Assembly (NCBI RefSeq): GCF_003334385.1
Contig: NZ_QOWN01000234.1
Strand: one strand, 5' to 3'
Length of the DNA: 201 nt
Origin: Escherichia coli
GTDB taxonomy: Bacteria; Pseudomonadota; Gammaproteobacteria; Enterobacterales; Enterobacteriaceae
Shown here: positions 54 to 86 of the stretch, in pieces
How positions within the stretch are numbered: the first letter of the stretch is position 1
Layout of the letters: each line of letters opens with the position of its first letter
Notes under the pieces: model-generated
The model's input: only the letters and a program-made list of their open reading frames with translations
Told to the model about the DNA's origin: nothing
Database searches by the model: none
Made by a program: the position numbers and the translations under genes

Positions 54-86
54 CTTGCTGGTTTGTGAGTGAAAGTCACCTGCCTT

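Follow-up and report, generated by a model that had tools for sequence, protein, structure and literature searches.

Organization of the tRNA-Glu-to-23S spacer

The 201-nt window, that is, the whole stretch of DNA that was analyzed, consists of the 3' 53 nt of a tRNA-Glu(UUC) gene followed by the first 148 nt of the spacer between tRNA-Glu and the 23S rRNA gene, and by its sequence it is part of the 16S-23S internal transcribed spacer (ITS), tRNA-Glu type, of an Escherichia coli-type rrn operon. All features described here lie on the plus strand. The tRNA part (positions 1 to 53) matched the Rfam tRNA model at 1 to 50 (34.6 bits, 5'-cut) and includes the anticodon stem (5 to 9 paired with 17 to 21), the loop CTTTCAC at 10 to 16 with the anticodon TTC at 12 to 14, and the CCA end at 51 to 53. 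It is identical to the 3' 53 nt of the K-12 genes gltU, gltV, gltT, and gltW, and the BLAST matches of the window in complete E. coli genomes carry a tRNA-Glu annotation. ARAGORN called no tRNA in the window because the tRNA-Glu gene is truncated at the window edge. In E. coli E69 (CP089930.1; L022:12574-12783), the T arm of tRNA-Glu showed a 1-nt deletion, GAAT-CCC for GAATCCCC, which is probably a homopolymer assembly error.

The exact K-12 matches are located in the rrsC-rrlC and rrsE-rrlE intervals, with no rRNA inside the window and the 5' end of 23S 46 nt past the window end. BLAST matched the window in 5,425 of the 5,426 complete E. coli genomes, at a median of seven places per genome, since all seven rrn operons share its 3' half. 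The first part of the tRNA-Glu-to-23S spacer, the tRNA-Glu 3' trailer at 54 to 86, was delimited in the alignment of the four Glu-type K-12 operons and has no alignable counterpart in the Ala-type spacers of rrnA, rrnD, and rrnH.

Downstream of the trailer, a boxB-like hairpin at 87 to 126 consists of a lower stem of 11 bp and an upper stem of 5 bp capped by a cUUCGg tetraloop at 104 to 109. Its folding energy was -16.3 kcal/mol (z = -6.05), and none of 200 shuffled sequences was as stable. Covariation supports the hairpin: among rrnG and the other genera, both partners have changed in three pairs of the upper stem, with 99.6% of the cells in the comparison paired. Located directly 5' of boxA and conserved in structure, the hairpin has the stem-loop character of the rrn boxB-boxA-boxC element. 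In place of this upper stem, K-12 rrnG and the copies in Citrobacter, Kluyvera, Cedecea, and Enterobacter have a different sequence that still pairs.

The spacer boxA, TGCTCTTTAAAAA, follows at 127 to 139. It occurs once per spacer in all seven K-12 operons and was invariant in every genus sampled; the leader boxA, TGCTCTTTAACAA, is found upstream of the 16S gene in each of the seven operons. As far as its function is described in the literature, boxA is the NusB/NusE-binding element of the rrn antitermination complex (PMC10250234; Pfeiffer and Hartmann 1997), and the rrn antitermination element is described there as recruiting NusB/NusE, SuhB, and S4 to RNA polymerase and as needed for efficient 23S synthesis.

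The adjoining stretch TCTGGATCAAGCTGAAAATTGAAAC at 140 to 164, a boxC-like region, is identical in all seven K-12 operons and in all other genera sampled except Cedecea, which has two changes. It is followed by a hairpin at 164 to 188 with a GAAA loop of the GNRA class at 175 to 178 (-11.4 kcal/mol, z = -3.1), which corresponds to the paired part of Rfam StyR-44 and contains variable sites at 174 (C/T) and 177 (A/G). Both the GNRA class and the closing pair are retained with G177, which gives the loop GAGA in rrnB, and with T174, which gives a U.G closing pair in rrnG and rrnH. From about position 165 to the window end, the sequence is replaced by an unrelated one in most other genera sampled, that is, all but Enterobacter mori. 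The Rfam model RF01830 (StyR-44) matched at 131 to 201 with 81.5 bits, above the gathering score of 54 (E = 3e-13; model positions 1 to 71 of 107); the match starts inside boxA and is 3'-cut at the window edge.

Sequence block variable between the K-12 operon copies

All seven rrn operons of K-12 MG1655 (NC_000913.3) were used as the reference in an exact-string search and alignment. At positions 78 to 82 of the trailer, the window carries the block ACCTG, which is the rrnC/rrnE type and the majority allele in E. coli, and the alternative GCCGA is present in rrnB and rrnG. The initial annotation had drawn attention to this region as a departure from the K-12 rrnB spacer, for which it quoted a string. 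The departure is real, with A in place of G at 78, T in place of G at 81, and G in place of A at 82, and the quoted string was accurate, as GAAAGTCGCCGACCTTAAT is contained verbatim in rrnB of NC_000913.3 (gltT-rrlB spacer, L002:2466). The corresponding window string GAAAGTCACCTGCCTTAAT is likewise present, but it extends from 71 to 89, and the interval of 71 to 86 assigned to it ended three bases short. A fourth difference between the window and rrnB, A versus G at 177, had been missed.

The rrnC (gltU-rrlC) and rrnE (gltV-rrlE) spacers were identical to the window at 201 of 201 positions, including ACCTG, C174, and A177. The only difference between the two lies about 23 nt past the window end (ATCGAAAG versus ATCGTAAG), so that the window cannot be attributed to either one. 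The rrnB spacer, with 197 of 201 identical positions, agrees with the window in the tRNA, the boxB-like hairpin, boxA, and the downstream hairpin but carries the block GCCGA (G78, G81, and A82) together with G177, and with these four mismatches (78, 81, 82, and 177) the window is not the K-12 rrnB spacer allele. The rrnG (gltW-rrlG) spacer has the same architecture as the window and shares GCCGA with rrnB; it differs from the window at 16 positions, namely, 78, 81, 82, 86, ten in the top of the boxB-like hairpin, 121, and 174. The ten replacements in the hairpin top keep the boxB-like hairpin paired.

Given the identity to rrnC and rrnE, the variant is a difference between copies within one genome and no sign of a non-K-12 strain or another species. 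An exact match of 54 to 201 to a K-12 copy had been expected to mean that the quoted reference was wrong and that there was no variant; such a match exists in rrnC and rrnE, but neither consequence holds: the quoted rrnB sequence was right, and the variant exists inside K-12. The suggestion that the block might mark a particular operon copy is correct inside K-12, where rrnC and rrnE carry ACCTG and rrnB and rrnG carry GCCGA, but not across strains, in which the block is not bound to an operon. From the sequence comparison, the flagged stretch is ordinary rRNA operon-copy variation of an already known kind, with both alleles in the K-12 reference genome.

Allele frequencies in complete E. coli genomes

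The alleles were counted in the 5,426 complete E. coli genomes with 41-mers centered on the block, neither of which can seed on the alternative allele. For the window-type block ACCTG, approximately 16,535 places were found in 4,960 genomes; the median was four per genome, corresponding to all four Glu-type operons, and at most 466 genomes were without this block. The rrnB-type block GCCGA was found at approximately 4,286 places in 2,069 genomes, a count that includes the rrnG-type variant with one mismatch, T86C. ACCTG is thus the majority form in E. coli and GCCGA the minority form, and both alleles occur together in at least 1,603 genomes (4,960 + 2,069 - 5,426), K-12 among them. The intermediate GCCGG was not found in the complete E. 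coli genomes. About 800 Glu-type copies fall outside both 41-mer counts (21,638 places minus the sum of 16,535 and 4,286).

The whole window had 100% BLAST matches in K-12 MG1655, C600, ATCC 8739, CFT073, and the type strain DSM 30083, and it therefore cannot be attributed to K-12. According to an evenly spaced ranking of the matches, the best copy was exact in approximately 54 to 56% of the complete E. coli genomes, and the same was observed for positions 54 to 201.

Linkage of the block with neighboring variable sites

In K-12, the block is linked to the length of the spacer between 16S and tRNA-Glu, which is 171 nt in rrnB and rrnG with GCCGA and 85 nt in rrnC and rrnE with ACCTG. This linkage is broken in the species as a whole. 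A synthetic query combining the long spacer with ACCTG had an exact match in about 930 to 1,120 E. coli genomes, and the combination of the short spacer with GCCGA was found at 99% identity or more in 826 E. coli genomes. In the O157:H7 genome (Z1836), the operon adjoining clpB, which is the rrnG position, has the short spacer with GCCGA. The block was therefore rejected as an indicator of whether the 16S-tRNA-Glu spacer is long or short, a role that holds in K-12, as both recombinant haplotypes are common species-wide. In metagenome contigs, ACCTG was seen with A177, with G177, and with T174, so that the states of sites 174 and 177 are independent of it. The mosaic of block, spacer length, and sites 174 and 177 fits gene conversion between paralogous rrn operons.

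The long, rrnB/rrnG-type 171-nt spacer itself was present in 2,786 of 5,398 matching records (5,394 genomes), and the rest had only the short one.

A match in strain XL1-Blue was considered as a case of gene conversion within the K-12 lineage and rejected, as it falls in jumbled repeat fragments at the assembly end. In that region (NZ_CP081007.1, 4653881-4662234; L036), at the end of the chromosome, RHS, ISAs1, and tRNA fragments are intermingled with pieces of the tRNA-Glu spacer. This appears to be debris from misassembled repeats, and it gave a spurious best match.

Block variants in other genera and in anomalous contigs

Other genera were scanned with the block left open, exact flanks required, and one genome per species, a design that is uninformative for Salmonella and Shigella. 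The scan yielded 16 loci in genome contigs, and a scan of metagenomes yielded 11, with only three forms of the block over both, the metagenomes adding no new one. Outside Escherichia, ACCTG was found in Citrobacter sp. R56 and Enterobacter mori, and GCCGA was found in Kluyvera, Cedecea, and Enterobacter sp. JUb54. The third form, GCCGG, was seen only outside E. coli, in Citrobacter youngae and Citrobacter sp. Awk 4. Every non-Escherichia copy differs from the window elsewhere. With both alleles in other genera, the polymorphism either predates Escherichia or was exchanged between genera, and the block alone does not identify a species.

An exact match in an Oxalobacter sp. metagenome-assembled genome (MAG) was rejected as an occurrence in another phylum. 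The contig (L017:9909-13266) contains an ITS identical to the window and approximately 2.8 kb of E. coli-like 23S; beyond this, in the final 600 nt of 23S, the mismatches per 200 nt rise to 9, 20, and then 37, and the 6.9-kb flank of the contig had no E. coli match. The contig is a chimera whose junction lies within the 23S gene. In the Chryseobacterium mucoviscidosis VT16-26 assembly, a short contig (L021:1-249; named length 268, coverage 1.5) contains 249 nt of tRNA-Glu spacer of the E. coli type, which differs from the window only by G177 and is almost certainly contamination. Two Bacteroidales/Muribaculaceae MAG contigs (L014:6454-6479 and L015:6201-6226) contain a degenerate 26-mer with TATCA and no other similarity to the window, and they amount to chance or unrelated matches.

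Origin and persistence of the block polymorphism

Directly observed were the sequence identities, how frequent each allele is, the loss of linkage across the species, and the occurrence of both forms outside Escherichia. They are explained, with high probability in our judgment, by an old and probably neutral or near-neutral 5-nt block polymorphism, ACCTG/GCCGA, of three linked substitutions that has been shuffled by gene conversion or recombination. According to this explanation, the three substitutions in the tRNA 3' trailer would be an old polymorphism of little or no effect on fitness, located in a spacer segment that would be removed during processing. Gene conversion or homologous recombination would copy the block between paralogous rrn operons and between lineages and so would leave a mosaic, with no linkage of the block to the neighboring variable sites. 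Neutrality, and gene conversion as the shuffling process, are the parts of the explanation that we infer. Both alleles across genera could also reflect selection keeping two forms, or horizontal exchange, instead of drift and conversion.

An alternative assigns a structural role to the block. A mini-hairpin was predicted at 60 to 84, with pairs 60-62/82-84 and 65-68/76-79, a loop at 69 to 75, and the variable sites in the 3' arm. The block might then be the 3' arm of a functional hairpin after tRNA-Glu, acting for example in tRNA 3'-end processing, with structure-preserving alleles. The same hairpin (60-63/81-84 and 65-68/76-79) is predicted for either allele. Each of the three substitutions faces a U residue, and pairing is kept or gained, with changes from U-A to U.G at 66/78, from U.G to U-A at 62/82, and from U/U to U.G at 63/81; Citrobacter youngae has C-G at 63/81. 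However, an A/G transition opposite U keeps the pairing trivially, and only three block variants are known. Over 14 variants, 97% of cells were paired compared to 15 to 53% in slid registers, but the structure was derived from the same sequences, which biases this control. In none of the pairs had both partners changed, and the observed values were reached by 401 to 500 of 500 shuffles (14 variants); covariation in the mini-hairpin was accordingly discarded as indistinguishable from shuffles. The z-scores of the fold were only -1.1 for the window allele and -1.9 for the rrnB allele, and the weaker helix, with a U/U mismatch, belongs to the majority allele.

A functional hairpin at the block is thus improbable. 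Slightly less probable again is the more specific proposal that a trailer hairpin affects the 3'-end maturation of the spacer tRNA, with the alleles as structure-preserving variants under weak selection. If it were true, weak selection on the hairpin would explain the persistence of the same two forms across several enterobacterial genera. The fit of the three substitutions to the small predicted hairpin could indicate a weak structural constraint, which would count against the neutrality in our preferred explanation of an old polymorphism shuffled between operons.

The main suggestion of the initial annotation, that the block points to a non-K-12 strain, to Shigella, or to another species, drew on the differences from K-12 rrnB, four of which exist in the window, and could also appeal to the occurrence of ACCTG in Citrobacter sp. 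R56 and Enterobacter mori. It is very unlikely, as the window is identical at 201 of 201 positions to rrnC and rrnE of K-12 MG1655 and is shared with thousands of other E. coli genomes, and the ACCTG-bearing Citrobacter and Enterobacter copies differ from it at position 64, in the top of the hairpin, or in the part that starts at 165. As a necessary inference, non-K-12 origin is ruled out by the exact rrnC/rrnE match. A sequencing or assembly error, or a faulty reference string, which the initial annotation had itself marked as not looked up, can be dismissed, given that the quoted string is exact in rrnB of NC_000913.3 and that each allele recurs in thousands of independent complete genomes.

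Value of the block for typing

As a strain- or species-diagnostic marker, the block failed, with the window allele in 4,960 of 5,426 E. coli genomes and additionally in Citrobacter and Enterobacter. The allele occurs with the long and with the short upstream spacer, against a restriction to one operon. Since the block is not operon-bound across strains and both alleles occur in other genera, it has little value alone for the typing of strains or species. The exact 201-nt sequence provides almost no strain discrimination either, because it is present in more than half of the complete E. coli genomes. A mismatch to the textbook rrnB spacer does not point to another strain or species, since the seven rrn operons within a single genome vary and the rrnB block is the minority form. 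In ITS typing and read assignment, sequences should be compared with all operon copies and not with a single reference copy.

Comparison with known rrn elements and spacer variation

The order of elements at 87 to 139, a hairpin and then TGCTCTTTAAAAA, corresponds to the rrn boxB-boxA-boxC element (Berg, Squires and Squires 1989; Pfeiffer and Hartmann 1997; PMC10250234), of which a second set is located upstream of 23S (PMC10250234). All seven K-12 operons have this order of elements ahead of the 23S gene. The flagged block at 78 to 82 is 5' of this element and outside it.

The block is also left out of the match to StyR-44 (RF01830), named after Salmonella Typhi npcRNA 44. StyR-44 appears to be a piece of the pre-23S leader in every rrn operon and not a stand-alone small RNA gene, and the RNA is probably a processing fragment and not the product of a separate gene.

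The spacer diversity of the ECOR collection is said to consist of variable blocks in a mosaic arrangement. Sequence diversity of the intergenic spacer region (ISR) in this collection was studied by Anton et al. (1998, J Mol Evol 47:62), as represented in the works citing that study. Gene conversion between E. coli rrn operons has been measured and is frequent, at approximately 3.6e-4 per genome per generation (PMC8022953), and conversions of the spacers between the operons are attributed to Harvey and Hill 1990 as cited in PMC8022953. The block described here belongs to the same phenomenon as the published ISR heterogeneity and rrn gene conversion in E. coli, namely, variants between operon copies, spacers included, and compared to the published ISR heterogeneity, the frequencies over 5,426 genomes are only a newer tabulation.
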